Source: a virus. Taken from it: a stretch of 64,000 bases of DNA. Below, piece after piece: positions 11,596-26,083 of this stretch. The stretch lies in the IMG/VR virus record IMGVR_UViG_3300013104_000002, positions 32,001-96,000 of that record; one strand, given 5' to 3'. The notes below the pieces were generated by a model. The model had not been told where the DNA came from and ran no database searches. It worked only from the letters and a program-made list of their open reading frames with translations. Each line of letters opens with the position of its first letter. The first letter of the stretch is position 1. Both the position numbers and the translations under genes were made by a program.

Positions 11596-14500
11596 TTATA
11601 TTATTTTTGTTCCTTGTAATCTACTTTTTGCAATTTGTGATTTCTTATAAGCGTCAATTTGCTCTGGAGTCATAGATAAATAAGCATTTTCGTTTAAACT
11701 TGGTAAAGCTAGATTTGTTTTCGGAGTGTTTATATACTGTAATCCTACTCCTGGTACGTATTGAAAGTTTTCATTTTGACTATTAATCATATTAATATTT
11801 TCAATATCTTTATAATTCTGCCTATTCTGCAAATTTTGTTCGTTATAGTACGAACGCCAATTATTCTCATAATTATTAAGACCTCCTAACACTTGCTGCT
11901 CATATTGCTGATTAAACTGAGAATTTGTTAAGTCTTCTTTTGAACGTTGCCCCAGATTATATTGATCAATTTGGGCTTGATTTTGTGCATTAAAACTTTC
12001 TATTTTGGATATTGCGTCATTAGAAGCCATTTGAGAAGAAGCTAATCCTTGTGAAAGTAGGGCTTCTTGTGCTTGAGGTGGTAATCCAGATGCTTGTACT
12101 CTTGCTACGTCAGTTCCTCTTTGTCTTTCCTGCTCGGCTAAATACGGCTCAACAGTCTGTTTGGTAGGATCTAACCTACCAAGAGTTATTTGCTCTTTAT
12201 ATAATGGATCAAGTGCTGACGGTGCTAAACGTAAATCATCAGGAAGAAGTGGTAAAACATTTTTTATAATGTTTCGTTGTTCTACAACAGGTTTACCATC
12301 AACTACTACTTTTTCTTCTACTTTAATTTCATCTCCATTTGCCTTTTTAAAATCATAAAGCGGTCTTGTTGAAGAGAATGCACCAAACTTCCCATCAAAT
12401 TGCTGAACTCCTCTTCCAGAGAAACCTACCTGATTTATAATGTTATTAGTTTCTGTCTTAGATATTCCTGCTTCTTCTGCTCTCTTTCTTAATTCTTTAT
12501 TATAAGCATTTTGAAATTTTAAAATCTCTGGTTGTTGCCCTTCTTTTTTAACTGCATCTCTGAAAGCTTGTTTTTTAGCTTCTGTGTCAAAATACCATTT
12601 ATGTAGGTTAATCGTATCTTCTACATTTCTCATTTGTGCACCATATCCTGTCCCTGTAAAAGGTTGGGTTTGCTCTACATTTTGAAGCATGTCTTGGTTT
12701 ACAATAGAATTTCCAGATACGTCGTATCCTGGAATTGTTGGAGTATATCTTGTAGAAAATGAGAATCCTGCTTGTGTTCCTTCCTGAGCCATAGGTACAT
12801 CCCCTTCTGCTGGTTGTTGTAATTGTTGCATTACTCCTTGCACCATTTGAGTGGCTGTATTTTGATCAATACCTTGAGAAACTAATTCTTTTAATACTTC
12901 TTCTGGTGATGATCCTTGTGATAATGCCTGAGCTATGAAATTCATTATTTGCTCTTGATCTGATGAGGTAGGTTGTTCAGGAGTGCCTCCCTCTTGCATA
13001 GCTAAAAGTTCTTGTGCACGTTCTTCTGAAATTCCATATTTTGCTGCAATATTTGATATCTCCCCCCCTTGTTGATAATTTTTTCCTTGTTGAGCGACTT
13101 CTTTACCGTTTTCGTCAAATATTTGAGTACCATCTCCTTTTTTTGGAATAGACTCTTGTATAGAAAATAAATCATCAAACACCATAGATTGAGGATTACT
13201 TAACATGTCAAGTTTTGCTTTACTTGTTTCTATTTCTTTAGATAGAGCTATTTCATTAAGTCTTCTCGTAGTTTCATCTTCTATGTTTGAATTTTTACCG
13301 AATTTTTCTATAAGCCCTGATAAAAAATCTGTCTCTTTTTGAATGCCTAGTTTTTTGTCATATTGTTTTTGAGCATCAGAAAAAGTAGCACCTTTTTTTA
13401 ATTTTAAGTCGTATCTTTCTTTAAGCTCTTTTATATTTTTAGCTGGTATTTTAGTATAATCCGATAGTACTTTATCTCCACCATCTAATCTTACATCTAC
13501 ACCCTCTCCAATCTTACCATTTTTAATGTGTTTTTCACCAACAACTTCCTGCACATTCCCAGTATCTGCTTTTTTAACAAACTCTCCTGATTCTACATTA
13601 TAATTAGGCATGACTTGATCAGTCAAGTATTTTCCTGTAAGAACGTCTGAATTTTTTATTTCACCACCTTGTTGCATAGCGGTAAAAGGATTATAATAAG
13701 AATTAATATAGTTATTATATTCTGGGTTACTTTTTAAAACATTCTCTATATCTAATACGTTTTTACCATATAACGGATTCTTTTTCATATCTATTCCTTC
13801 CTCTGGAATAGGAACTCCATATATTTTTTGCATATTAAAGCCGTGTTCGTTTTTTTCTGTGTTTGAAAAAACTTTACCCCGACCATTGTAAACTTGGATC
13901 TTATCTTCTTCTTTTTTTAGGTTAAGTCTATTAGCTGTATTCATTTTCTCTTGGTAAGCATCCACAAATCCCTGTGCATCCCCTGCATAGTTTAAAACTC
14001 TGCCTATATTACTGTCAGCCTTTCCCATACCTGTTTCTGCCATAGCAATTGCTGCCAACCTGTCTATATCTTCACGTGACATGCCTCTCCCTTTAGCTAT
14101 TTCTATTACTTCGTTAAAACGCTGTGTAGGATAATTACCTGTTATTAAATCTTTGTTTGGATTAATAGGTTTATTAGTTGTTGCTCTTTTTGTGCGGTTA
14201 TCTTTAATATGTATATTATCAGGCTTATTGAAAGTGTTGAAATCTTTTTTTTGCCCTGCTAAATCGAAATCTAACCAATAAGTACCTCCTTCTTGAGCGT
14301 ATTGATAGTTTATTTTAGGATTATAAATATCATTAAACTGTTCTTTTCTAACTCTGTCACTTTCTTTTCCTGAAGCGTATCCTGTTAGAAAACTTCTTGC
14401 TCCTTTTAATACGGATAACCCTGCTCCTAATCCTCCTTGGAAATTATTACCTGAACCAAATCCTTGACCAGCATAATTTAAACTGCTCTCTAAATCTACA

Positions 14501-14913
14501 CCACTATAAGGATTTACTATATTATAACGTGTAATATCATTATATTGAGGCTGATTTCCTGCGATTTGATTAGTTAATTGTTGCCTTTGTTGTTCTGTTA
14601 AGTTTAAATCTTGACCTGAGAATTGATATTGACTGTCTAAATAATTTGTAGCTGGTGTAGCAGATTGGGAAGTAAAAGGTGACCCATTGAAATCATATTG
14701 AGGTATTTCTGGCTTTCCTACATAAGGAGTTGATGTGAAATTATTTACTATTGACGGATAGGTCATAGCATAAGGACTTGGATATTGCCCCCCTTGTTGA
14801 GCTTTATTCCTGTCTTTTTCCATGCTATAAGCTATCGCCGCGGATTGAGCTGAACTATAGCCCTCTTCTTTTAATTTTTTTATCTTGTAACTTATGTATT
14901 CTTCTCTGTTCAT
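11596..14913 (-). CDS. Modular cargo protein (crAss cargo-1-like) with QxGG linkers and a lysozyme/transglycosylase-like module
   Basis: 1105 aa. Has NVESGE...GEKH...GVDV...KVLSD block seen in crAss cargo proteins, an AAIAMAETG lysozyme-fold helix, a Q/N-rich C-terminus and seven QxG(G) motifs. Confidence 0.7.
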   Translation of the reverse strand: MNREEYISYKIKKLKEEGYSSAQSAAIAYSMEKDRNKAQQGGQYPSPYAMTYPSIVNNFTSTPYVGKPEIPQYDFNGSPFTSQSATPATNYLDSQYQFSGQDLNLTEQQRQQLTNQIAGNQPQYNDITRYNIVNPYSGVDLESSLNYAGQGFGSGNNFQGGLGAGLSVLKGARSFLTGYASGKESDRVRKEQFNDIYNPKINYQYAQEGGTYWLDFDLAGQKKDFNTFNKPDNIHIKDNRTKRATTNKPINPNKDLITGNYPTQRFNEVIEIAKGRGMSREDIDRLAAIAMAETGMGKADSNIGRVLNYAGDAQGFVDAYQEKMNTANRLNLKKEEDKIQVYNGRGKVFSNTEKNEHGFNMQKIYGVPIPEEGIDMKKNPLYGKNVLDIENVLKSNPEYNNYINSYYNPFTAMQQGGEIKNSDVLTGKYLTDQVMPNYNVESGEFVKKADTGNVQEVVGEKHIKNGKIGEGVDVRLDGGDKVLSDYTKIPAKNIKELKERYDLKLKKGATFSDAQKQYDKKLGIQKETDFLSGLIEKFGKNSNIEDETTRRLNEIALSKEIETSKAKLDMLSNPQSMVFDDLFSIQESIPKKGDGTQIFDENGKEVAQQGKNYQQGGEISNIAAKYGISEERAQELLAMQEGGTPEQPTSSDQEQIMNFIAQALSQGSSPEEVLKELVSQGIDQNTATQMVQGVMQQLQQPAEGDVPMAQEGTQAGFSFSTRYTPTIPGYDVSGNSIVNQDMLQNVEQTQPFTGTGYGAQMRNVEDTINLHKWYFDTEAKKQAFRDAVKKEGQQPEILKFQNAYNKELRKRAEEAGISKTETNNIINQVGFSGRGVQQFDGKFGAFSSTRPLYDFKKANGDEIKVEEKVVVDGKPVVEQRNIIKNVLPLLPDDLRLAPSALDPLYKEQITLGRLDPTKQTVEPYLAEQERQRGTDVARVQASGLPPQAQEALLSQGLASSQMASNDAISKIESFNAQNQAQIDQYNLGQRSKEDLTNSQFNQQYEQQVLGGLNNYENNWRSYYNEQNLQNRQNYKDIENINMINSQNENFQYVPGVGLQYINTPKTNLALPSLNENAYLSMTPEQIDAYKKSQIAKSRLQGTKII

Positions 14914-14957
14914 TTTGATGATATTTCTTTTAAAAATGCTTTTTCGGCTTCTGTTAA
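14910..14957 (-). pseudogene. Orphaned C-terminal exon-like remnant (LTEAEKAFLKEISSK*) of the 16248-18683 gene
   Basis: In frame with the upstream gene once the 1299-nt insert is removed; resembles that gene's ITPSELAFLKEVKSS; ends in an ATGA overlap with the next gene. Confidence 0.75.
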
Positions 14958-16232
14958 TTATTTAAAAACACCGGTATATAAAAGTGTTGTTTTGTTTGTT
15001 CTCTTACCTGATAAGTAAGCTTTTATGGTATTGTAATTACTAAACCCTAGTTCTTTACATGCTATTTTTAGATTCTTATATGCAATACTCGTAGATGTGT
15101 CTATAACCTCTTTAAAAGTCCATTCAGTAACTTTTCCTTCTTGAGCTTTTCTCCTATTTTCTATCTGTTGTTTTGTTAGTGGTGCGCGTTTTTTACCCCT
15201 ATTACCATCCCCTATTGCTTTTTTATGCTCCTCTGTTAAAGGAACTCCTTTTCTTTTATTTTTTACATCTGATTTTTTATGTGGTAGTGGTTTCCATTCA
15301 TCATATTTTTTATCTATGTCTTTAAATATCCATTCCTTACTCACAAGTCTATAACCTTTATAATTTTCTACAGTATTTTTTTCTAGGAGATTTAATCCAT
15401 AACGTGTCAATGTACTATTTTTTGTAAAATTTGTTATTGAAGTAAATTTATATAATTGATTATTATAGGATACTGTGTACATGAAACCATTTTGAATTTT
15501 ACTTGCCTCTATTTCAATATAGTCTTTATATTCGTCTTCATAGCAACACCACCATCTATTATCATACAAGCACTTATATTTTTTAAGAACCGAGTATAAC
15601 ATATTATTTGTTGTTTTTTCATTTTTTATTATAGACTTAGGTAAATTATTTTTACACCATATATGTAAATCATAAGTCTTATATGATAAATTATTTATTA
15701 AATCAAAAATTAAAATACTTCTCGCCCTATCATTTTTTAAACGGTATCCTTGACTCGTTTGTTGATAACCGAGTAGTAATTTATATATACTTGAATCATC
15801 TAAATTCTTATTTCTACAAAATTCTTTAATATTTTCACCTGTATGTATATTACCTTCAAAATCTATTAATTCAAAAGACTTTATAGATGCTATATTAAAA
15901 CCTCCCACTCCACCTATCGCAGTGTTATAATTATTCTTTCTTTTTATGTATTCTAAATTAACTGTGTTTTTCTCTACTTCTAAAGCTTCTTCATATGTGT
16001 CAAAAAATTGTAATACTTCTTTTATAAAATTATCGTATCCATATTTTAAAACGGCTTTTACAAAAGCAGATTTACAAGTCTTATTTATATTTTTTGCACC
16101 ATTTTGACTATAAACTCCACATCCTATGTAACCATCATTTATCTTATTTGTTTTATGAACCCCTATGTATTCTTTACCATTAATTATATTTATTGTTTTA
16201 TAAATGTAATTATAGGTCTTACTCTCTGTCAT
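14958..16232 (-). mobile_element. Free-standing GIY-YIG (Seg-like) homing endonuclease with NUMOD-type DNA-binding repeats
   Basis: YIYKTINIINGKEYIGVH...EEALEVE...YNTAIGG; C-terminal LTEEHKKAIG (NUMOD3-like) and NUMOD1-like HTH; flanked by TTAA repeats. Confidence 0.9.
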
Positions 16233-16247
16233 ATTCTTATTAGTTTT

Positions 16248-18683
16248 CTAACTTAATGGATATTCTGTAAATTTTGTAGCATTAGGGAAAGTATATTGTC
16301 CTGTATTTGCCTTTATTATTTTTGGCTCTCCTTTATCAGGTACTACATATAAATCTATATTCCCATAACCCTCGGTTGACATTACATTACCTTGTATTTC
16401 CGTAATTTTATTTGGAAACAATCTCTGTCCTTGGTTATTTTTTATTGTTGAACTTTTTACCTCCTTTAAAAATGCTAATTCTGATGGAGTTATCTCTCCT
16501 AAATTTATCCATTGATCTCTATCTTTGTTTATCGTAATTTTTTTTCCTTCCTGCGCGTAAGTATTACTATCTGTAGAATTGTAAGCAGTTTTGTTTAATA
16601 AGTTTAATAACTGATCTTTAGAGAAATGTTTTAAATTATAATCCTCTAAATTATAAGTTTCTACGTCTTGTGGAGTTATTACTTGATCTGGTTTCAGTTG
16701 ATAATTATATCTTAATCTGTTTAATTCTGCCTGATTTTCATCTATATCTCCTCTATAATTATTCAAACCTTGTATATTTTGAAGTTCTTGCGAAAAAGGT
16801 TCTTTAATATATTTATTATAAGTTGATGGATCTACATATTTTTGAAATCTATGGCTAAACTCATGTACTGGTATTCCTTGTTTATTTTGAAAATTATTAT
16901 CTAATAAAAGTCTGTCTGATACTCTGTCGTATTCTCCTAAAGTTGTTTCTCCTTCATTTTTACCATAATTTAAATCATCTACATAGATATCTGATGAAAA
17001 TGGTATTTGTGTTCCAGTGTTTATTTTAACACCGTCTACAACTCTATTTTGATTCCAATTATTTAACCATTTCCTTTGATTTTCTACTTCTAAAGTCTGA
17101 TCTGGAGTTAGGTTTCCAATTGTACCTCCTTGCTGAGCATAATTATTATATGTTTTAGAACTATCTGCTATATTATTCATTAACCAAATTATATCATCAT
17201 CTGTATAATTTTTCTGAAGTCTTGATTTTATAAATTCAGAATTTTTTAATTTATTTAAATGACCTTGATTAAATTTACCATCAGTTCGTGTATCATAAAT
17301 TCCATTTTTATACATTAGATATCTTAAAGCATCTATATCTGCTTTATTTTCTATTGGTTGAAAATCATGATCCATTTTGTTGTAAACTTTATTTTTTACA
17401 ATACCCTCTAAATCTTGTTTTCTAAAATCATCGTCTAATTGAAACTGTCTTTGTCTACCGAAAAGTTCTAAATTATCTTTATAGTTTAAATTTACTCCTG
17501 ATTGTAAAGCGTGACTAAGTTCATGCGCTCTAACAGCTTCTGTACTAGGATTAGGTTTAATTCTTTGTTTATCTATAGTAGGGTTTAATGTTAATTTATT
17601 ATCTGAAGGTGAATATCTAGATCCTTTATTTGCATCTGGAAATCCTTGAAATTCTCTATATAACTCTTGAAAATAATTATCATTTGGATTTTGTATATAT
17701 TCCTTAACTGTTTTTAGTTTATTTAGTCTGTATTTTACGACTTCTTGTGGATTTTCATATCCTTGCTGTCTTAGTCTTTCTAAATAAACTGGAGAATTTA
17801 AATAAGATTCTAAATAAGCTTTTGGATCAATATTTTTATCCTTTATTATATCTGGCTCTAGATTAGGGATGTTATCTTTAATAACCCCTCCTTGTTGCGC
17901 TATTTGAGTATCTATAAAATTACTAACTTGATTATATATTCCTGTTAAATCTGGTACTTCTGTTTGTACAATGGGCTGTTCTTGAGGTATTGGTTGTTGT
18001 GAAATAGGTTGATTAATCAAATTTTGGTAATCTTTCAAAAAATTGTACTCATTAGTTTGCTTTTTTACTTCTTCAATATCCTCATCCTTTTTATCAGGCT
18101 GTTCTTCTTTAATTTCTTCTGCTAAATTAGTGTTATCTGCTGAAATATCAAAATCTTTGACAGTGGTTGTTGGTAAGTTATCAAAATAAGAATTAGTTTC
18201 AGCAATTACTCTATCTGATATGGGTGTTGAAGCCATTCCTGAAAATGAAGAGTATATCTTGTTGACTTTTTTCTGCCTTTCTGGATTATTTTTGTACTTT
18301 TTGGCAGGAATCTCATATAAATCTGAAAACACTTGTCCAGCTTGATAAGCAGTAGTAGCATTCTTCAATCCTAAATTAGCTTTTTGATGGGTTGTTTCTA
18401 GTTCATGTCTAACAAAATCTAATTGATTTCCAAAATCAGTCCACTTATCCCCATATCTTTTCTTAAGGTCTTGTAATCTTTTTCCTCTAAATTGAGCTAT
18501 ACCAAATGACGAGCCTCCTCGGTATCCAATATCTCCCTCGGCTGATGTATTTAATCCACTCTCGTACACTAGATTTCCTACTATACCTGCTGTAGCTTCT
18601 GGGGAATAACCTTGAGAAATAAAATAATCATAAGCTATTTTTTCCTTTTCTCTTTGTTTTTGATAAGATTTAACTGTTGGCAT
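16248..18683 (-). CDS. Modular virion protein: phage tail lysozyme (Phage_lysozyme2-like) plus two zincin-like HExxH modules
   Basis: N-terminal AGIVGNLVYESGLN...SFGIAQF...QLDFVRHEL; HELSH and HEFSH modules each with a downstream ExxA; AQQGG linkers. Confidence 0.8.
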   Translation of the reverse strand: MPTVKSYQKQREKEKIAYDYFISQGYSPEATAGIVGNLVYESGLNTSAEGDIGYRGGSSFGIAQFRGKRLQDLKKRYGDKWTDFGNQLDFVRHELETTHQKANLGLKNATTAYQAGQVFSDLYEIPAKKYKNNPERQKKVNKIYSSFSGMASTPISDRVIAETNSYFDNLPTTTVKDFDISADNTNLAEEIKEEQPDKKDEDIEEVKKQTNEYNFLKDYQNLINQPISQQPIPQEQPIVQTEVPDLTGIYNQVSNFIDTQIAQQGGVIKDNIPNLEPDIIKDKNIDPKAYLESYLNSPVYLERLRQQGYENPQEVVKYRLNKLKTVKEYIQNPNDNYFQELYREFQGFPDANKGSRYSPSDNKLTLNPTIDKQRIKPNPSTEAVRAHELSHALQSGVNLNYKDNLELFGRQRQFQLDDDFRKQDLEGIVKNKVYNKMDHDFQPIENKADIDALRYLMYKNGIYDTRTDGKFNQGHLNKLKNSEFIKSRLQKNYTDDDIIWLMNNIADSSKTYNNYAQQGGTIGNLTPDQTLEVENQRKWLNNWNQNRVVDGVKINTGTQIPFSSDIYVDDLNYGKNEGETTLGEYDRVSDRLLLDNNFQNKQGIPVHEFSHRFQKYVDPSTYNKYIKEPFSQELQNIQGLNNYRGDIDENQAELNRLRYNYQLKPDQVITPQDVETYNLEDYNLKHFSKDQLLNLLNKTAYNSTDSNTYAQEGKKITINKDRDQWINLGEITPSELAFLKEVKSSTIKNNQGQRLFPNKITEIQGNVMSTEGYGNIDLYVVPDKGEPKIIKANTGQYTFPNATKFTEYPLS

Positions 18684-18686
18684 AAT

Positions 18687-19610
18687 TTAGTCTGTAATTG
18701 TTTCGTTGTGTGTGGTATTTTTAAGTATTAGGTTATATCGGCTATCAACAGCTCCTGATAGATTTATTAAAAACCATTCTCCTTTCATTCTTTCTAACAC
18801 TTTTTTTCCCCTAAACTTAACAGCATTTGTATTTATAGTTTTAAAAATATTGTTCTCATCTGTGGTGAACATTGGAATGTTGTTTTGTGAATTTATTATC
18901 CTATTGAAAAAGTAGTTTATTGATTGCTTTCCACTATCACTTGTGAAAAGTATTTCTTGGACATTACCATTAGTTTGAGGGTATTTTCTATTATCAGATA
19001 ATGTAAGTTGTGGATTTAATCCTAATAAACCAGAATTATTGGTTTGATTAAATATGAATAAATTTTTAAAACTCTTATTCTTGTCTTGCGTCCAGTCCCA
19101 ATCATTTACATAATGTATAGCATCTATGTTTAAAGATATAGAATTTAATATTTTATCTACATTTTCATTTGCAATAGGTAGTTCTATTTGGGGTATGTGT
19201 TTATTTCCTTGAAATATGCAGAAACTACTTCTGTTTAATAAATGATTCCAGAGTGTTTCTTTATCTTCTCCAAAATTATAACCTATTTGAAAATATCCAT
19301 TATGAGATAAGCTATAATCAGGATAGAAAGTATAAAATGAATTCCACGTTCCTTCTACTACATTAAAAGATATAGTCCAACTCACTTCTTTAAAATAAGT
19401 ATCGTCATCGAAAAAAACCTGTTGTTTACTACTTTTTATAGTAGGAGCCACAGTTTCAGTACACGAGCATATTACGTTATTATCTTCAGTAATGATTGGT
19501 GTACAACCTGGAGGACAGGATACAGCTTCTATAATAGTAGTACAGGTGCAATATGTTACACCTGATACTATTTCTTGATTACACTCTATGCTGGGACAAG
19601 TACATGCCAT
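18687..19610 (-). CDS. C-terminal part of the split tail muzzle/stabilisation protein
   Basis: After a Cys-rich leader it contains SWTISF...WNSFYTFYP...LWNH and ERMKGEW, the blocks that normally follow the KKDY block in crAss-like muzzle proteins. Confidence 0.7.
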   Translation of the reverse strand: MACTCPSIECNQEIVSGVTYCTCTTIIEAVSCPPGCTPIITEDNNVICSCTETVAPTIKSSKQQVFFDDDTYFKEVSWTISFNVVEGTWNSFYTFYPDYSLSHNGYFQIGYNFGEDKETLWNHLLNRSSFCIFQGNKHIPQIELPIANENVDKILNSISLNIDAIHYVNDWDWTQDKNKSFKNLFIFNQTNNSGLLGLNPQLTLSDNRKYPQTNGNVQEILFTSDSGKQSINYFFNRIINSQNNIPMFTTDENNIFKTINTNAVKFRGKKVLERMKGEWFLINLSGAVDSRYNLILKNTTHNETITD

Positions 19611-19651: not shown

Positions 19652-22600
19652 TTAATTAGTTAAAACCGTTACACCTTTTGATATTAATGTGCTAACTGCT
19701 GAATTTGAAGCCGATGTTCTTGGAGAATTACCTCCTGTCAAGTCTACTTTTCCGCTAGATGCCCATGTAGGAACAGAAAGATTAATTAATAGGTTATCTA
19801 CTTCTGTTGAACTTAGTGCACTGGTTGCAGATTTTATAGTTACTTCTTTCATATTATTTACCCAAGTTCTACCTGATGTATAATCTGCAATTGTGTTTGT
19901 TCCTTGTATACTAAATATCCTTACATTTGGGGGTATTAAAGCTACATTTCCAGTTAGTGAATTTTCATCTAAGTCTATAACAGTCATTGTTGAAGGAAAT
20001 CCTGAAATATCCCCCGTAATATTATTTCTAGTAGCTATTAATATACCTAGACTAGTTAGTTTTGCTAACTCACTTACTTTTATCTCAACCTTTCCGTTAT
20101 TCAGAGTATCTTGTCCAATATTCATAGATCCTATAGAATTAGCATATACTGTAGTTATGATTTCTCCCGTATAAGACGTAGTGTAATTATGACTGAGCGT
20201 ATTTAATCCCGCTGGATAAGTGATTATAGTACCATCTCCCCAATTTACTTGAAACGTTGTTGAACTATTTACACTATACAAAGAGAAATTATCCAAATCT
20301 GTTGCATATAATTTAAATTCTATAGGTAGGGAAGGGTTAACTGTTACTATTACTTCTTCTGGCTCAGGAGTACAATCCTCAAAATGTGGGGTGATTGTAT
20401 ATATCACTGTTCCTACTATTGACCCGCTGTTTGTTAAAGTTTGAGCTATAGAACTTCCCGAACCACTTCCAGCACCACTAACTCCACTAGAAACTGCTGT
20501 CCAAGTAAATGTGGCTCCTAAAGTCGAACTTGTTAGAGAAATACTTGTGGTATCTCCACTAGCTATGTTTTGTACAGAAGGAGTAGGAATTACATCAACT
20601 GTGCATGAACAGTCTGCTGGTTCAGTAGTTATTAAAGTACAGGTTTGATTAACTTCATCGTAAACATAGTTTGGAGGACATAATGGTGCAGATGTAGTTT
20701 GTCGCTCACAAAGTTCAGTTAATGAATTATAAGTAAATCCTGGTGGACAAGTTGTTGTATCTTCTCCACAAGTATAATATATTCCTGTTTCTTCATCATA
20801 ATCCAGACATTCTTCGTCCTTCACAATATAATCTTTTTTGGTAATAAAAAGTCTTTCCCCTCTGTCATCATACCACATATTGTATCCAATACCTTTATAC
20901 TTATTATCAGTATTCAAATTTGGGAATTGTTTTAGTATTTTTAAAGGAAGTTGCTCTTTAAACCATTGTTTCATGTTAGTTGGTTGACCCCCTGACTGTT
21001 CTGAAATAATCTCTACTCCCTGACCATTTGATTCTAGTTTAAATATTCTTCCTCGTTTTGCATCCACCCAAAAATGTCCATATGGTGTACTTACAATATC
21101 TGTATGTTGAGTTCCCATGAATCCTAAATCAGTTGACTTAAATTCAATAGGTCTTTGGTAAAACATTCCTGAAATCCCTGTTTCTCTGTTTTGAGGTGTT
21201 AGTTTCTCAGAAAAAACATCTATAGCATTATGTAAAAGTAATCTGTTTTCAAATCTTGCTATAAACTGATTACTTTCAATGTTATGCATGTCAATAAGCT
21301 TACCATTATTTGTCTTGAATTCATACCAATTTAAAGGTTTATATACTAACCACGGATTAGTTAAATCATTTTCATTTACTTCTTTTTCAGACCAGGTTAC
21401 AGCGTTATTTTGTAAATTTCTTTTTCTCCATATCTCTTTACTGTAAGTTTTATCAAAAAATTTATATGGTGAATTTGAAACACCTAAACTATATGAATTA
21501 TTATAGTGAAAAGTATTTGGTTCTGACATAGGCAGGTTAGCTTCCTGTAACCATGTACTTAGATTTCTATGTTGTGGATAAAACCATTCCTTAGGTTCAT
21601 TTTTGGCATATCGGAAATTACAATTAATTTCTGACTCAACCAAAAAATCTACTATTCCGTGTACAAATAAATAAAATTTACTAGGCGGTTTATAATAAAA
21701 ATCCTTTCTGCCTGTCTCGCAATCAAAAGCTGTTTCTGATTTTATGTCTGGGAAAGGTATTCCTGTATTGGTATATATCCCTCCTACTTCATAATCACAA
21801 TAAAAACGTGGAAAAGCCATATTATCGTTTTCAGAGTACAAAAATGGTAATTTATCTGCTAATTTTACTGCATTACTTCTAAATATAGGGGCTTTCTTTC
21901 TCCAACTAAATCTTGATATTACCGAAGTTCCGCCTAATATAGGGCTACATTCTGTATTTTGATCTAAGTCAAATATATAATTAGTTGTAAGCCATTTTAT
22001 AGAGTCTATTTTACCCCATTGATCTGGAATATAATTTTTTAAAGTAAAATAAGGAGACGCTACGTTTCTGTCTGCTTCTACTCCTAATTTACAGTTTGTC
22101 TCGGATGAAATAAAATTACTGCCTTTATTAGACTTATTATTATTGTCGTATGCAGTGTATTGAGAATAAGAGGAATAGTCAAATGGAAAGCTTTCACCAG
22201 TAGATAAGAAAACCGAGTGCTCTCTTAACCAGTTATTAATTTTTACCATTTCTCCTGTATTTTCATCAGTAAATGTATAATCTCCTTCTCTTAAATGTTT
22301 TTTTATGGCAAGTTTTCTAAGATACTCTGAAGAATATTGGTCGGCTTTTAAGAATTTATTATATTTTGCAACTCCTGTTTGCATATTAGCATAGTTATCC
22401 ACTCTGCCTAAGTCTCTGAAAATAGTTAACCAGTCATATCTGTATTTACCGATTCTTACATAAGCTGCTGCAATCATTCCTGCTGCTGCAATTCCTGCTC
22501 CTACTGCTCCTAAACTAAATACAAAACCTCCTTGTTGTAGGGCTATTAGCTCTCCAGTTTTTATAAGTACTTCCATTACAGCCTCTGCTATAGCTAAAGT

Positions 22601-25600
22601 AGTGGCAGTGCTTCTTGATTTGTCTCCTAAAACTGTCCATTGTGAATGCTCGTCTACTTTCGAAAAGCTACTCGTGCTGTTACCAAAAACAAATCCTTGT
22701 AAACTTACTTCTGTTGGTAAAGAAGGTCTGGTTAAAAAAATATCAGGACTTAAGAAAGAATACATGTGGTTTCTTTCTGAATTATATGGATGATTTATAA
22801 TATTTCCTTTTGGTTTTTCAAGCAAATATTTATTCTTACCTAAATCATTAAAAGGAAAATTACTAAAATTTATAGTTTCTCCTTCTTTCTCATAATTATA
22901 AAAATCAAAACCAATTCCATTTGCTATTACAGATTTGGATACTGAATTATCACCTCTTAATATTTCATATCCCTGAATATTATCTCTTTGTTTAGCTGTG
23001 ATTAACCCATTTGAATATGCAATATTTATAACAGTTTTTATTACATTGCTGTCTATTTGAACTCCTAATGGAAATATGATACTATCTGCATTTTGTCTAA
23101 AACTTAGGGAATCTATTATATAAGGGGCAACAGTGTTATCAGGCATTTTAGGGTGTCTGATAGGCTGGCATCTAAAGTCTGCATTTTTTAGTATGTAGTT
23201 TCCATTACTGTCTAATCCAGAAGTGTAGTAATTTAAAAATTCTTCCCTGTCTTTTTCGGATAATAGGTTTAAATCAGAACCATTTATTTTTATTTCTGAA
23301 CTATCCCACAATTCTTTATTGTCGTCATAAATTTCTGTAGACTCCCAATAGGCAGTTACTCCCTTTCTATAAGGTAGTGGATCGCAATCATTTACTTTAG
23401 GTATTTTGTACCTACATTGTGTAGAGTAGTCTTGTATCTTGTCTATTACAATACTATCCCAACTTACCGTTGCTGCCTCATATTCTGTTTCTCTAATGTA
23501 AACAGAAAAACACCCACAAGGAGGTATAACTTTGTATACAATCTTTGGATCACCTGGAAAAATATCACTGCAATCTGTATATATAGTCTCACTCATTATA
23601 GGTGAGTCAATTGCAATGTAAAAAGTAGGAGGTAAAAGAGCTAGTTGAGTTTCATTAAAAAATCTTAGCTCTCCATTATCCAAATCTACTATTTCTCCTC
23701 CTAAAACTGTTTTATTAGTGCAGTTATCATAAATAGTGTACCTTACTGTAGAAACACTTGGTAGATCGTCTCTATCATTACTTGAAGGGCATTTCGATCT
23801 TCTGGTTATTTCAAAAACCAAGCTTGATCTCTCGTTCTTATTTATCTTGAAAAATTGAGCTTTTTTGTGAAGTTTAGATTTAAAAACACTATTAGTTACT
23901 GCTACATTATAAGATGGTTGTAATAAATCAGCTTCTAAATCAGCTCCAGCGTAATTTAGAAATACACCTATTCCCGACTGAGATGGGTCAGATTGTACTA
24001 ACAAACTTTCGGCATATCCGCAAATTTCGTTACTAAAATTACTGTCTCTTACATAGGCTTCTCTTAAATCTCCACCTACCTTACATCCCATAAAGTTTTC
24101 CTCAAACTCAGTATCCCTTTCATAACCTGATCCGTCTACGTCTCTTTTATAAGGGCTACAGAAAGATGGAGGAACAGATCTTAAATAATCTTCCTCTTCT
24201 TTAGGATCAAGTACTGTTACCTCATTTACTACGCTTGAAATAATATTTGTTTGATTATCTAGATTTGCAGGTAAATCACAATCTCCTATAAAAGCAGGTG
24301 AACAATTTCCTGGATAAGCGTTATTTAAAGCATCTGTAATTATAGATATATTAGGATCATCTGGATGAGTCTCCACATACGTTTTTAAATCTTCATAGTT
24401 TTGATCTATTTCTATAGTTACTGATCCAGTATTTATAGTATATACATTTTCTAAAGTGCATGAATTTGTTGCAGGTTCCTCTATTTCTGTAGCTCCTTCC
24501 TCTATGTCTATACATGTTTCATTATAAGCATACGCTGTATTATATACCTGCCATTTTTTATTTCTGTCTGTAGATACACACTGAGAGCTGTTGTTTAAAA
24601 TACTATTTAAATTATTATCCTCTTCCAGAATATCATTTTCGCCTGGTAGTGCAGGTCTAGCAATTAACGGAATTGCTGTGGAATACCCTCCATTTTTGTA
24701 TAAAAGTCGCGCACTGAATGGTTGAACTTCATCTCTTGTAAAGCCTTTATATTTAGAATTTGCAATTGCACTTTTATATAGATTCTCCGAAGCTGCCGAT
24801 GTAGTCCAATGCAATAATCCTCCAAACAAGTTCATAACAGGTTGGACATTCAATTCTTCTTCTTGTACTAATCCTCCATGCCAAAGTACATCTCCACTTA
24901 CCATAGTGAATTTTGCTTTCTCCCAGTTAGGTTTAATTGCATTCAATGTATTAAAATCCATTCTCTTTTTAAGAGATACGTTTCCTCTGGCAATATACAA
25001 ATCATCATTACTGCTTCCGCTATGTGTATATATAACTGTATCGTCTGTTGTAGGGTAAATTCCTGCTAAAAACACTGATTGGGTGTTAACTACATTATTT
25101 CTTTCTACAACGGCTATTTTATAATATTTAAAATGCTTTACATCTAAATTCTCTACTTTTATTTTTATAGCAAAATTTGTAAATTCGTCTGTTTCTGTTT
25201 GAGATTGGATATTGTTATTTTCATCGAATATAGCGATAGGGTTAGTTGGGGAAGAATATTGAGTCATCTCATTTCCCATTAAATCGCAATAAGCCGCCCA
25301 AAACTCATAAGTTCCTTTTTTCAAATTACCACCTAATTGTTGTTCGGCAGGATTTAAAATTATTCTATTATGTTTAGGAAACATTAAAAGCTTATCTACA
25401 TCTATGCAGTTACTATAGGTAGAATCTTCACACGGCAATTCTAGCTCAAATAAATAATTTTGTGCACCTTTTTCAAGTAAATTAGTTACATTTAAAAATC
25501 TAGGTGGATTTCTATAATCATTCCAGTATAAAGTTGTCCCTAATTTCTCTTGATTGATTTCTATCTTTTTTGCTGGAAAATTAATATCAAAATTAAGTCC

Positions 25601-26083
25601 TGCATAAATATCTAAACATCTGTCATTAACTAGTTCTATATATTGTAAAGAAGGAACTTGTGTTACTGTTTCTAAAGGAGTTACAATAGGATTAAAAGCT
25701 TTTATACCACAACTATCACAATCTTCATTAAAATTAGTAGTTTCCTCGTTTTTGTAATTTATATTATTTATATCATTATTATCTACATACCCAATACTTG
25801 AACGTTTGTAATGAACACTATTAGTATCTTCTATAATACTAGTTAGAAAGTAATACGTATAATTTGAAAGTAAGTCTGTTTTTTTTCCAATGACTTTATA
25901 ATTTTCTGGGAATTTAACTCCATAATAATTAGAAGGTTCCAATTGGCTAATCTGGGTATCGCCTCCTTCATTACTAGATGTCATATTTACAGAAACTGTA
26001 TATTGTATATTCTTTAAATCCGCTCCATTTTTATCGCGTGACATTCCTAGTCGAGGGGATGAAATACTTTTATTATGTTTCAT
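19652..26083 (-). CDS. Tail muzzle/stabilisation protein (N-terminal part) with C-terminal PKD/Ig-like and LRR-like domains
   Basis: 2143 aa. GMSRD N-terminus, LYWND...PRFLN, YKGFTRDEV, IRHPKMPD and GHFWVDAKRG...KKDY blocks typical of the crAss stabilisation protein; LRR-like ITGDISGFP/LTGNVALIP repeats at the end. Confidence 0.85.
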   Translation of the reverse strand: MKHNKSISSPRLGMSRDKNGADLKNIQYTVSVNMTSSNEGGDTQISQLEPSNYYGVKFPENYKVIGKKTDLLSNYTYYFLTSIIEDTNSVHYKRSSIGYVDNNDINNINYKNEETTNFNEDCDSCGIKAFNPIVTPLETVTQVPSLQYIELVNDRCLDIYAGLNFDINFPAKKIEINQEKLGTTLYWNDYRNPPRFLNVTNLLEKGAQNYLFELELPCEDSTYSNCIDVDKLLMFPKHNRIILNPAEQQLGGNLKKGTYEFWAAYCDLMGNEMTQYSSPTNPIAIFDENNNIQSQTETDEFTNFAIKIKVENLDVKHFKYYKIAVVERNNVVNTQSVFLAGIYPTTDDTVIYTHSGSSNDDLYIARGNVSLKKRMDFNTLNAIKPNWEKAKFTMVSGDVLWHGGLVQEEELNVQPVMNLFGGLLHWTTSAASENLYKSAIANSKYKGFTRDEVQPFSARLLYKNGGYSTAIPLIARPALPGENDILEEDNNLNSILNNSSQCVSTDRNKKWQVYNTAYAYNETCIDIEEGATEIEEPATNSCTLENVYTINTGSVTIEIDQNYEDLKTYVETHPDDPNISIITDALNNAYPGNCSPAFIGDCDLPANLDNQTNIISSVVNEVTVLDPKEEEDYLRSVPPSFCSPYKRDVDGSGYERDTEFEENFMGCKVGGDLREAYVRDSNFSNEICGYAESLLVQSDPSQSGIGVFLNYAGADLEADLLQPSYNVAVTNSVFKSKLHKKAQFFKINKNERSSLVFEITRRSKCPSSNDRDDLPSVSTVRYTIYDNCTNKTVLGGEIVDLDNGELRFFNETQLALLPPTFYIAIDSPIMSETIYTDCSDIFPGDPKIVYKVIPPCGCFSVYIRETEYEAATVSWDSIVIDKIQDYSTQCRYKIPKVNDCDPLPYRKGVTAYWESTEIYDDNKELWDSSEIKINGSDLNLLSEKDREEFLNYYTSGLDSNGNYILKNADFRCQPIRHPKMPDNTVAPYIIDSLSFRQNADSIIFPLGVQIDSNVIKTVINIAYSNGLITAKQRDNIQGYEILRGDNSVSKSVIANGIGFDFYNYEKEGETINFSNFPFNDLGKNKYLLEKPKGNIINHPYNSERNHMYSFLSPDIFLTRPSLPTEVSLQGFVFGNSTSSFSKVDEHSQWTVLGDKSRSTATTLAIAEAVMEVLIKTGELIALQQGGFVFSLGAVGAGIAAAGMIAAAYVRIGKYRYDWLTIFRDLGRVDNYANMQTGVAKYNKFLKADQYSSEYLRKLAIKKHLREGDYTFTDENTGEMVKINNWLREHSVFLSTGESFPFDYSSYSQYTAYDNNNKSNKGSNFISSETNCKLGVEADRNVASPYFTLKNYIPDQWGKIDSIKWLTTNYIFDLDQNTECSPILGGTSVISRFSWRKKAPIFRSNAVKLADKLPFLYSENDNMAFPRFYCDYEVGGIYTNTGIPFPDIKSETAFDCETGRKDFYYKPPSKFYLFVHGIVDFLVESEINCNFRYAKNEPKEWFYPQHRNLSTWLQEANLPMSEPNTFHYNNSYSLGVSNSPYKFFDKTYSKEIWRKRNLQNNAVTWSEKEVNENDLTNPWLVYKPLNWYEFKTNNGKLIDMHNIESNQFIARFENRLLLHNAIDVFSEKLTPQNRETGISGMFYQRPIEFKSTDLGFMGTQHTDIVSTPYGHFWVDAKRGRIFKLESNGQGVEIISEQSGGQPTNMKQWFKEQLPLKILKQFPNLNTDNKYKGIGYNMWYDDRGERLFITKKDYIVKDEECLDYDEETGIYYTCGEDTTTCPPGFTYNSLTELCERQTTSAPLCPPNYVYDEVNQTCTLITTEPADCSCTVDVIPTPSVQNIASGDTTSISLTSSTLGATFTWTAVSSGVSGAGSGSGSSIAQTLTNSGSIVGTVIYTITPHFEDCTPEPEEVIVTVNPSLPIEFKLYATDLDNFSLYSVNSSTTFQVNWGDGTIITYPAGLNTLSHNYTTSYTGEIITTVYANSIGSMNIGQDTLNNGKVEIKVSELAKLTSLGILIATRNNITGDISGFPSTMTVIDLDENSLTGNVALIPPNVRIFSIQGTNTIADYTSGRTWVNNMKEVTIKSATSALSSTEVDNLLINLSVPTWASSGKVDLTGGNSPRTSASNSAVSTLISKGVTVLTN

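Follow-up and report, generated by a model that had tools for sequence, protein, structure and literature searches.

Short sequence-specific peptides that lie in disordered linkers or after leaders have the look of protease sites, as in the capsid-targeting sequences of phage T4 and the inner-body proteins of phiKZ. In crAss001, residues 425–552 of gp45 were found by cryo-EM to be ordered as one portal-bound piece, and two parts of this protein lie on opposite sides of the portal, ~420 Å from each other; cleavage is never mentioned in the virion paper (PMC10172136). An arrangement of zincins interspersed with other modules was described by Iyer et al. 2017 for predicted self-processing polyvalent proteins with MPTase domains (PMC5512222). 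The window analysed here, a stretch of 64,000 nucleotides from a viral genome of 146.5 kb with 175 ORFs, encodes two large proteins, P0001 and P0002, which are homologous to gp040 and gp041, respectively, of Cellulophaga phage phi4:1. Mass spectrometry underlies the annotation of both phi4:1 proteins as virion proteins, so the designation of P0001 and P0002 as cargo in an earlier sequence-only reading is reasonable; the two are probably packed and injected by a crAss-related marine phage. Both carry a short junction peptide, for which no description was found in the literature.

Ten copies of a junction peptide

The ten minus-strand motif copies reported in the sequence-only reading were all found at the positions given there, seven in P0001 and three in P0002. 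The features of the locus are as follows.

11,596–14,913, minus strand: P0001, modular cargo protein of 1105 aa that resembles crAss001 C1 (gp45), defined by its ORF, translation and AlphaFold model md1c9cf13ec06
14,803–14,913, minus strand: N-terminal helical hairpin of P0001 ('leader'), residues 1–37, pLDDT ~91, helices 3–16 and 21–37
14,788–14,802, minus strand: motif 1, AQQGG, residues 38–42
14,323–14,553, minus strand: Gly-rich helical module, residues 121–197, pLDDT 57–77, a strand (124–132) and then helices
14,284–14,298, minus strand: motif 2, AQEGG, residues 206–210, left border of the unique cassette
13,678–14,283, minus strand: unique cassette, residues 211–412
13,663–13,677, minus strand: motif 3, MQQGG, residues 413–417, ends the cassette on the right and adjoins the N-terminal side of the core that resembles crassvirus cargo protein 1 (CARG1)
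13,096–13,662, minus strand: conserved core, residues 418–606, a small CARG1-like beta domain and then long helices, pLDDT ~90
13,063–13,095, minus strand: motifs 4 and 5 together, AQQG-KNY-QQGG, residues 607–617, an 'empty' cassette site
13,084–13,095, minus strand: motif 4, AQQG, residues 607–610
13,063–13,077, minus strand: motif 5, YQQGG, residues 613–617
12,985–12,999, minus strand: motif 6, MQEGG, residues 639–643, separating a helix pair from a helical bundle
12,778–12,789, minus strand: motif 7, AQEG, residues 709–712, single-G subtype ahead of the C-terminal domains
14,958–16,232, minus strand: GIY-YIG homing endonuclease gene separating P0001 from P0002 (PHROG 314 homing endonuclease, E 2e-26)
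16,248–18,683, minus strand: P0002, 'polyvalent'-type cargo protein of 811 aa, in which a lysozyme is followed by zincin 1, zincin 2 and an end module of 80 aa
18,234–18,683, minus strand: lysozyme module of P0002, residues 1–150 (Pfam PF18013 Phage_lysozyme2, E 1.9e-31)
17,886–17,900, minus strand: motif AQQGG, residues 262–266, lysozyme/zincin 1 junction
17,163–17,855, minus strand: zincin module 1, residues 277–507, HELSH at 387 with ENKAD downstream, pLDDT ~92
17,124–17,138, minus strand: motif AQQGG, residues 516–520, zincin 1/zincin 2 junction
16,581–17,117, minus strand: zincin module 2, residues 523–701, HEFSH at 607, a paralogue of module 1
16,545–16,556, minus strand: motif AQEG, residues 710–713, zincin 2/end module junction
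16,251–16,490, minus strand: C-terminal beta module of ~80 aa, residues 732–811, pLDDT ~90

P0001, which matches PHROG 36695 ('virion structural protein'), comprises the leader hairpin, a variable region, the Gly-rich helical module, the unique cassette, the CARG1-like core, helical modules and C-terminal domains. The leader is kept in most homologues, with the consensus MxKxxFIxxKxKxLxxEGYxxxQAxAIAxS...AQQG and motif 1 directly after it, and column identity in the Gly-rich module is 50–66%. In P0002, the lysozyme module has a Foldseek match to phi29 gp13 (3csq, E 1.6e-4). Zincin module 1 belongs to a family of 502 representatives; H, E, H and E are invariant in alignment A5. The fold of the module has weak matches among gluzincins (M13, M9, M34 and M56). 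Domain comparison ruled out the C-terminal beta module as a CARG1 relative.

All ten motifs represent a single conserved junction peptide. Its core reads hydrophobic-[A/M/Y/F]-Q-x-G-[G], in most cases with x-I/V/L next, and it is located in the flexible linker that precedes almost every exchangeable module of both proteins. Seven copies end in GG and three in a single G (AQQGK, AQEGT and AQEGK). In 10,000 composition-preserving shuffles, [AMY]Q[QE]G occurred on average 0.17 times in P0001 (7 observed) and 0.05 times in P0002 (3 observed), and neither observed count was matched by any shuffle. Across all ORFs of the genome, seven of the eight occurrences of Q[QE]GG are within these two proteins, and the other presumed cargo proteins (897, 1682 and 734 aa) contain zero Q.GG motifs. 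An AQEGK in the homing endonuclease is probably due to chance, and the endonuclease is outside the motif system; the cargo genes abut or overlap in phi4:1, L004 and L005. The previously noted codon differences between copies (GGG GGG, GGA GGT and GGT GGT; GCT/GCG; CAA/CAG) were also seen, which places the conservation at the protein level.

The proposed position of the motifs at domain borders holds in the AlphaFold models of both proteins. Each stretch with pLDDT below 50 (residues 38–105, 198–262, 402–416, 642–651 and 699–714 of P0001; 258–276, 508–522 and 702–731 of P0002) holds or abuts a motif, and the neighbouring domains have pLDDT of 85–95. The exception is the AQQG/YQQGG pair of P0001 (607–617), located in a dip of ~58–66. 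The motif is also kept in relatives, on which the sequence-only reading had made its proposal depend: its residues rank with the most strongly conserved columns across 60 homologues of P0001 and 45 of P0002. Within the P0001 family (61 sequences, mean column identity 18%), G416, Q614 and G616 are invariant, and conservation reaches at least 90% at Q39, G41, Q414, G617, Q640, G642, Q710 and G712, as it does at Q263, G265 and G713 in the P0002 family (46 sequences). The lysozyme/zincin 1 junction reads [AMFY]Q-x-G-[G/T/A/K] in 45 of 46 aligned P0002 homologues, and the zincin 2/end module junction reads YAQxGG in most. Of the 474 GG dipeptides in 64 P0001-family proteins, 273 show a Q at position -2. 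These data show that the junction peptide is under strong purifying selection.

Gain, loss and movement of modules

The architecture of exchangeable modules claimed for both proteins is supported, with the motif marking the borders, and a comparison that the earlier reading had proposed revealed that breakpoints of module gain and loss in relatives coincide with the motif. P0001 residues 206–412 represent a reference-only segment absent from all 60 homologues (gap fraction 1.00 over 221–400). The cassette has a motif on either side, and the ancestral flanks are divided between the two copies, motif 2 retaining the left flank NYxY. P0065 and P0066 have modules homologous to the cassette elsewhere in the protein, P0150 has one ahead of a zincin, and P0189 also contains one. 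The cassette may be a wall-cutting module of SLT or lysozyme type; among named Atlas clusters it comes closest to SLT and Phage_lysozyme2 (0.86–0.88), values that serve as a lead only. At the empty AQQG-KNY-QQGG site, ten homologues carry inserts of 72–291 aa, most of which are bounded by ..AQQG at the left end and ..QQGG at the right. The biggest insertion hot spot is 2–3 residues past motif 1 (mean 36–37 aa), and others are at residues 703 and 714, near motif 7.

Split at the motif, the 49 proteins of the P0002 family resolve into 29 module strings that follow one plan: lysozyme, then 0–3 middle modules, then the 80-aa beta module, which is final in about 39 of them. Losses in P0072, P0086 and P0088 begin at P0002 residue 521, right after the motif at 516–520. 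Together, these comparisons show that a module plus its junction peptide is the unit gained, lost and moved, also between P0001 and P0002.

Candidate functions of the junction peptide

We tentatively favour a reading in which the junction peptide is an uncut recognition and joint element with a putative common partner. A single partner, either the portal/tail lumen or a packaging scaffold, would read the peptide while the chain of modules is loaded, and the flexibility of G(G) would let modules unfold and go through the channel singly at ejection. Separately encoded modules bear the same peptide after a short N-terminal leader, and fusion of such tagged genes would leave a tag at each joint. 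Motif flavour co-varies among five P0001-family sites (the +1 value was reached in 6 of 2000 shuffles, with no signal at -1), and since this co-variation is weak, its support for a single shared reader is modest. A general packaging tag should mark all cargo, so the three Q.GG-free proteins speak against this reading. It is possible, if rather doubtful, that the peptides are instead protease sites at which the precursors are cut into single modules in the procapsid or after injection, by their own zincins, a host protease or a phage protease that has escaped recognition, and that short motif-ended leaders are removed like the T4 capsid-targeting sequences. Such sites would explain why each module border has a short, specific peptide in its disordered linker and why stand-alone modules begin with a leader and GG, as do 27 of 58 N-terminal zincins. 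They would also fit the presence of the peptide after 95 of 116 internal zincin borders (82%) versus 15 of 70 terminal ones (21%; 186 zincin domains), a junction-specific distribution that suits the uncut joint element too, and the 45 zincins interspersed with other modules among the 49 P0002-family proteins, most of which have one to three; fragments would further explain the distant parts of crAss001 gp45. Nevertheless, the evidence leans against a Gly-Gly-specific protease, and the analogy with ubiquitin-like and adenovirus-protease sites drawn in the sequence-only reading is weakened. At junctions that are conserved in other respects, the second G is frequently replaced by T, A, K, V or a further residue, leaving Q-x-G as the invariant core. 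Searches of the 97 other ORFs, and of all six frames for C48, S77 and S78, detected no protease family beyond the zincins. Nor are zincins universal partners: their profile is absent from a 136.5-kb relative, whose two cargo proteins both have MQQGG-type motifs, and from the cargo clusters of two partial relatives. Motif variants also occur 0–4 residues from the C termini and 1–8 residues from the N termini of related proteins, some of which start with MGWLDKYxxGG or end with GGWLDKY before the stop, and a 1204-aa protein of L086 has motifs at residues 5, 336 and 1197. AlphaFold did not place the flanking motifs confidently in the P0002 zincin clefts (pLDDT 33–47), and the equivalent peptide is uncut in crAss001 virions, as described below.

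A flexible joint without any partner, consisting of a Gly hinge and a helix or strand cap and doubling as a seam that tolerates in-frame recombination, is unlikely. Conservation would then reflect folding and translocation constraints and the common ancestry of the linkers. The GG is indeed located in linkers, motif flavour largely follows the site rather than the genome, cassette insertions with divided ancestral flanks resemble exchange between two motif copies, and the recurring coding core CAA CAA GG could supply microhomology. However, codons vary (GGG GGG, GGT GGT), so that DNA homology is short; an invariant Q and hydrophobic residues at fixed spacing, against the low mean identity of the family, exceed the needs of a hinge; the motif is kept at N-terminal leaders and C-terminal ends, where a joint is unnecessary; and it is nearly limited to two proteins, despite other large multidomain proteins in the genome. 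Least probable by far is a role for Gln-specific chemistry, through deamidation or Q-K cross-linking of the transglutaminase type, or for the nucleotide sequence, as an internal AGGAGG of Shine-Dalgarno type from which translation of downstream modules would start. The Q is invariant in this clade, K occupies some phi4:1 junctions where this phage has Q, and CAA GGA GG, similar to a ribosome-binding site, is present in five of the ten copies. Yet other flavours have K, A, F or Y in place of Q (AKNG, AFGG, AYGG), searches for a transglutaminase or papain-like domain found none, the variable Gly codons are not followed by a start codon at a fixed distance, and the pattern conserved is that of amino acids.

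Comparison with phi4:1 and crAss001

In phi4:1 gp040, LKSGG aligns with motif 3 (MQQGG) of P0001 and FQSGG with motif 6 (MQEGG). The Gly-rich module of P0001 resembles, when compared by eye, a Gly-rich putative membrane segment of crAss001 gp45. When the P0001 core was aligned with the CARG1 region of gp45 plus four relatives by domain-restricted hhalign, the probability was 84% (E 7.6e-6, 67 columns; E 0.017 and 0.0019 in whole-profile runs). The Pfam CARG1 match on gp45 begins at residue 424, at an NAFGG peptide, and the distance to the CARG1 core is similar in the two proteins: MQQGG is 24 residues upstream in P0001, versus ~20 for the gp45 peptide. This AFGG (425–428), the positional equivalent of the junction peptide, is ordered, uncut and continuous with the portal-bound domain in a structure that is silent on cuts N-terminal of residue 425 and after ejection (PMC10172136).

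Source genome and cargo gene neighbourhood

The source record is 146,490 bp long with direct terminal repeats and a GC content of about 30%, and the window represents its bases 32001-96000. Among cultured phages the closest are phi4:1 and phi17:2 of Cellulophaga (genus Lightbulbvirus, 145 kb), with protein identities of about 32-34%. Both cargo genes, encoding P0001 and P0002, lie within a long minus-strand block of virion genes, where the order is 2143-aa protein, 307-aa ORF, P0002, endonuclease, P0001, and then an 897-aa and a 1682-aa protein.

Cargo gene region of the window
19652-26083, minus strand: 2143-aa protein, matching PHROG 37948 (length 2289) at positions 2-1744
18687-19610, minus strand: 307-aa ORF, matching the final 240 positions of PHROG 37948
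16248-18683, minus strand: P0002, 811-aa lysozyme-zincin cargo protein
14958-16232, minus strand: GIY-YIG homing endonuclease, 424 aa (PHROG 314, E 2e-26), between P0002 and P0001
11596-14913, minus strand: P0001, 1105-aa modular cargo protein

The 2143-aa protein is read here, from its PHROG match, as the putative muzzle, and the gene for P0001 lies where a crAss-type tail has its cargo block, downstream of the muzzle gene. Since the 307-aa ORF and the 2143-aa protein match one and the same PHROG, the giant gene read as the muzzle seems to be split in two; a PKD-like domain (PF19406) ends its first part. The architecture is crAss-related: a muzzle-like protein precedes the two cargo genes, and the window ORFs encode a CrAss_Ring_2 tail-ring domain (E 9e-28) as well as an ADP-ribosyltransferase domain, ART-PolyVal (E 1.3e-9). 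The ART-PolyVal domain would add another injected-effector candidate to the cargo block. In phi4:1, the homologues of P0001 and P0002 (gp040 and gp041) carry a virion-protein annotation based on MS/MS. In phi4:1 and two related loci (L004 and L005) the two cargo genes abut or overlap by a few bases, and the endonuclease gene appears to have inserted recently between two translationally coupled cargo genes.

Pfam families encoded beyond the window (G000:C1 1-32000 and 96001-146490) include a Cpn60-type chaperonin, the CBASS inhibitor Acb3, a T7 gp5.9-like RecBCD inhibitor, RlaP, NADAR and SLOG domains, and ribonucleotide reductase. A relative of near-genome length (L118, CAYGMB010000002.1, 136,560 bp) is binned in a metagenome-assembled genome (MAG) labelled uncultured Flavobacteriaceae, which may hint at the host group or be a binning artefact.

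The junction peptide and the module borders

Both ORFs and all ten copies of (A/M/Y)-Q-x-G-(G), seven in P0001 and three in P0002, were confirmed at the positions assigned to them by the sequence-only reading. GG is present in seven of the ten copies and a single G in three. In 10,000 shuffles per protein, [AMY]Q[QE]G occurred on average 0.17 times in P0001 (7 observed) and 0.05 times in P0002 (3 observed), and none of the shuffles gave as many copies as the real sequences. Genome-wide, Q[QE]GG occurs eight times in 175 ORFs, seven of them within P0001 and P0002. Codon usage varies from copy to copy, as had been noted before, and an internal Shine-Dalgarno function was rejected because the Gly codons vary and conservation is at the amino-acid level.

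The P0001 family set (64 proteins: P0001 and 63 homologues with 35-63% identity in the best local match) contains 271 usable Q-x-G-G sites with the logo [A/M/L/Y]-Q-[Q/E]-G-G-[E/Q/K]-[I...], and Q stands at -2 in 273 of its 474 GG dipeptides. Across the 61 aligned sequences of the P0001 family, whose columns average 18% identity, G416, Q614 and G616 never vary, and Q39, G41, Q414, G617, Q640, G642, Q710 and G712 are at least 90% conserved; the same level is reached by Q263, G265 and G713 in the P0002 family (46 sequences), 45 members of which carry [AMFY]-Q-x-G-[G/T/A/K] at the first junction. The aligned sites of phi4:1 hold degenerate forms (YQNGG, LKSGG, FQIGG, FQSGG, LKEGG and AQAGG). A test for concerted evolution of the motif flavour within proteins gave no more than a weak signal at +1, where 6 of 2000 shuffles reached the observed value, and nothing at -1.

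Pfam, AlphaFold models made from the homologue alignments and Foldseek bore out the module lists proposed for both proteins from sequence. P0002 starts with a lysozyme (PF18013, E 1.9e-31) whose fold resembles that of phi29 gp13 (Foldseek E 1.6e-4), continues with a pair of paralogous HExxH gluzincin-like modules and ends in a beta module of 80 aa. It thereby combines at least two unrelated effector or enzymatic domains in one phage polypeptide, as in polyvalent proteins. In the zincins, HExxH and the downstream Glu are invariant and the fold is weakly gluzincin-like, with no Pfam MPTase-PolyVal match at E <= 0.01. P0001 begins with a confidently modelled N-terminal helical hairpin, followed by a variable region, a Gly-rich helical module, the cassette (residues 211-412), a conserved core (418-606) and helical modules. 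The mean pLDDT was 66.7 for P0001 and 77.6 for P0002. Every segment with pLDDT below 50 (P0001 38-105, 198-262, 402-416, 642-651 and 699-714; P0002 258-276, 508-522 and 702-731) has or adjoins a motif, while the neighbouring domains reach 85-95; at the motif pair of P0001 607-617 the dip is milder (about 58-66). A complex prediction of zincin 1 (P0002 277-507) with Zn and a 60-residue linker of P0001 holding three motifs (596-655) scored 0.02 against a mark of 0.32, a result that bears on binding in neither direction.

Profile comparison makes the P0001 core a probable homologue of the portal-binding CARG1 domain (PF25725, crAss_CARG1) of gp45, cargo protein C1 of Bacteroides phage crAss001 (PDB 7QOG, 7QOI, 7QOJ, 7QOL and 8CKB; Bayfield et al. 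2023, PMC10172136). An hhalign run restricted to the CARG1 domain gave a probability of 84% (E 7.6e-6, 67 columns), whole-length profile runs were weaker in the same region (E 0.017 and 0.0019), and hmmscan of P0001 with Pfam's own CARG1 model gave no match at E <= 0.01. Fold searches with the full 1105-residue model as query, which do not bear on the CARG1 fold either way, returned nothing at E <= 0.001 with Foldseek and generic helical matches alone with VIA-align (Z <=8.4). The P0002 end module as a second CARG1 was ruled out, as it gave no signal.

Like P0001, the virion-internal gp45 is encoded shortly past the muzzle gene and has a Gly-rich segment (in gp45 a putative membrane segment) and a small beta domain, which in gp45 binds the portal. 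Like both cargo proteins, it has hydrophobic-x-x-GG peptides, which in gp45 are SAYGG (206-210), AFAEGGG, KAFGG, NAFGGWLNTQGG and FAYGG (559-563), with NAFGGWL at 424-430. The pieces of gp45 seen by cryo-EM, 214-245 in the tail barrel and 425-552 at the portal, are each flanked by such peptides. The flavour differs, being A-[FY]-GG in gp45 and A/M-Q-Q/E-GG in P0001 and P0002. The crAss001 paper mentions neither the motif nor module exchange and handles gp45 as one uncut chain (PMC10172136).

Gain, loss and exchange of modules

In the homologue alignments, breakpoints of module gain and loss coincide with the motifs, as the proposed module code had predicted. P0001 206-412, which spans AQEGG to just before MQQGG, is missing from all 60 of the 60 homologues. 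The ancestral junction NYxY-x-QQGG-xIxNSExLTG was split by the cassette between two motif copies, so that the left copy retains the old left flank and the right copy the old right flank. Homologues of the cassette lie elsewhere in P0065 and P0066 and before a zincin in P0150 and P0189, so a single module is exchanged between both cargo proteins. The nearest named Atlas clusters of the cassette, SLT and lysozyme, serve as a lead only, and it had no match among PDB sequences. In P0001 homologues, insertions are most marked directly past AQQGG (after 44-45), between AQQG and QQGG (613 and 616) and around AQEG (703 and 714). At 607-617, where just KNY separates the two motif copies of P0001, ten homologues carry cassettes of 72-291 aa, mostly bounded by ..AQQG and ..QQGG.

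When 49 members of the P0002 family were divided at the motif, the fragments fell into clean clusters, namely B (lysozyme), A (zincin), D, E, F, G, H and C (end module), in 29 distinct module strings, among them B-A-A-C (11), B-A-C (6), B-D-A-C, B-E-C, B-D-C and B-A-A-A-C. Deletions in P0002 homologues begin at residue 521 or 267, immediately past a motif, and relatives exchange in SET, LysM/YkuD and further modules. A SET-domain module (PF00856), which may be an injected protein methyltransferase, stands in place of the 80-aa end module in P0089 (E 7.7e-7 here) and, from precomputed matches, in P0096 and P0115. A 2335-aa relative (L084:9716-16723, plus strand) is a much larger form of the same modular wall-attacking cargo protein, with three LysM domains, one zincin, six [QK]-x-GG peptides and a weak YkuD-like L,D-transpeptidase match (E 0.0068, under the Pfam cut-off). 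In other crass-type phages a CARG1 portal-binding domain and a zincin are joined in one protein (L085:9032-10639, plus strand, and P0098), so P0001 and P0002 draw on a common module pool.

At E <= 0.001 the zincin module family has 502 representatives, many of which stand alone as proteins of 230-350 aa. Counted over the borders of 186 zincin domains, a GG peptide comes after 95 of the 116 internal but just 15 of the 70 terminal ones, and before 80 of the 128 internal and 27 of the 58 N-terminal ones (consensus Y-A-Q-[N/Q]-G-G-x-I); the peptide thus belongs to junctions and N-terminal leaders. A second flavour, GGWL(D/N)KY, caps both protein ends (start MGWLDKYxxGG, end ...NFTNYNKxxxGGWLDKY*). 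It occurs, after ..LTNFTNYNK.., at the start, joints and end of cargo-type proteins of other phages, and is also found in P0140, P0153, P0156, P0159, P0199, P0249 and P0263; a related-locus search with P0156 as sole query found nothing.

Carriers of GGWL(D/N)KY
L086:7166-10780, plus strand: residues 5, 336 and 1197 of 1204
L089:9041-11083, plus strand: residues 43, 571 and 675 of 680

Function of the junction peptide and comparison with known systems

The evidence on cutting, taken together, leads us to rank highest, tentatively, an uncut peptide for recognition and jointing. A cleavage site comes second as a less probable reading, and a passive hinge or recombination seam third as an unlikely one. 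The motif layout resembles that of protease sites, most P0002-family members contain zincins and the crAss001 work includes no cleavage test, all of which would suit cutting. Nevertheless, no dedicated maturation protease (S77, S78 or related) was detectable in the genome, which counts against a cleavage site, though a very divergent protease may have escaped the searches. Searches with Pfam (30 window and 67 other ORFs) and PHROGs (30 window ORFs) detected no protease family besides zincins; six-frame searches of the whole genome with the S77/S78 prohead protease models PF04586 and PF03420 gave no match at E <= 1, nor did a six-frame search with PF02902 (C48), and C5, C39 and C57 were absent from the Pfam family tallies. 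The di-glycine processing put forward by the sequence-only reading (clan CE Ulp/adenain) is weakened, as is processing of the C39 double-glycine-leader type, since no such cysteine protease was detected. P4 of the junction peptide is Q, not hydrophobic as expected for such processing, and strict Gly-Gly at P2-P1 also fell, the second Gly often being replaced at conserved junctions by T, A, K, V and others, which again argues against cleavage.

Moreover, the motifs persist in a relative that lacks the zincin. The zincin profile found nothing in the cargo clusters of two partial relatives or in the 136,560-bp phage contig of the Flavobacteriaceae MAG (one marginal match lies on another contig of the MAG), and the two cargo proteins of this zincin-less relative carry IMQQGG, AYQQGG, MGQQGG, RMQQGG and MMQEGG. 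Terminal motif caps are hard to reconcile with cut sites, and the MQQGG-equivalent peptide of crAss001 is ordered and continuous with the portal-bound domain to which it is joined (PMC10172136). The fuller proposal is a processing and loading code in which [A/M/Y]-Q-x-G-G would mark each module behind it for recognition, packing and release by cleavage, either in the capsid or in the host; it appears somewhat improbable. If true, any enzyme gene placed between two motif copies would yield an individually delivered effector, a natural plug-in system for injected payloads common to crAss-related phages of Bacteroidota.

Other candidates were set aside. Transglutaminase, deamidation or Pup-like chemistry fails as a general explanation, as Q is replaced in other flavours and such an enzyme was not found. 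The signal-peptidase 'Q-rule' (A↓Q) was rejected, as Q frequently follows M, L or Y, and peptidoglycan stem-peptide mimicry was dropped as chemically unrealistic.

Literature searches on the motif strings and on crassvirus cargo processing found no description. This genome adds a cassette insertion with duplicated junction peptides and the corresponding empty site, a module common to both cargo proteins, junction statistics and a zincin-free relative. How megadaltons of cargo protein are loaded and ejected has been a standing question since the crAss001 structure. A seam peptide bounding exchangeable modules offers a rule for reading large unannotated proteins, exact spots in available maps and mass-spectrometry data at which to seek protein ends or docking contacts, and a handle on whether cargo is delivered as one thread or in pieces. 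If the peptide alone suffices for loading, foreign proteins could be placed in phage particles.

The polyvalent proteins of phages and conjugative elements with zincin-like MPTase domains (Iyer, Burroughs, Anand, de Souza and Aravind 2017, PMC5512222) are likewise large, multidomain and co-delivered with DNA, combine lysozyme, ART and other effector domains, have one to five HExxH zincins interspersed between domains and show extensive domain shuffling. Zincin-mediated processing was proposed there as a prediction for most members, and no junction or cleavage motif or site was defined (PMC5512222). In contrast, the constant feature here is the seam peptide, kept in a relative without a zincin, rather than the zincin itself.

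Internal head proteins are processed by prohead proteases in T4 (gp21, capsid-targeting sequences) and phiKZ (gp175, inner-body proteins), where a dedicated S77- or S80-type protease cuts after Glu (LxE, or S/A/G-x-E). These systems also have short consensus peptides after N-terminal leaders, sometimes inside packaged internal proteins, and one motif recurs in several cargo proteins. However, the motif described here ends in Gly, proteolysis at it is putative, and such a protease is not detectable. The tail-associated wall-degrading enzyme gp13 of phi29 (PDB 3CSQ) has an N-terminal lysozyme of the same fold as that of P0002. As in P0002, a linker connects the lysozyme with a metallopeptidase of the same virion protein. 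In gp13 this peptidase belongs to the M23 type instead of the HExxH gluzincins, and gp13, unlike P0002, has neither a repeated junction peptide nor cassette variation.
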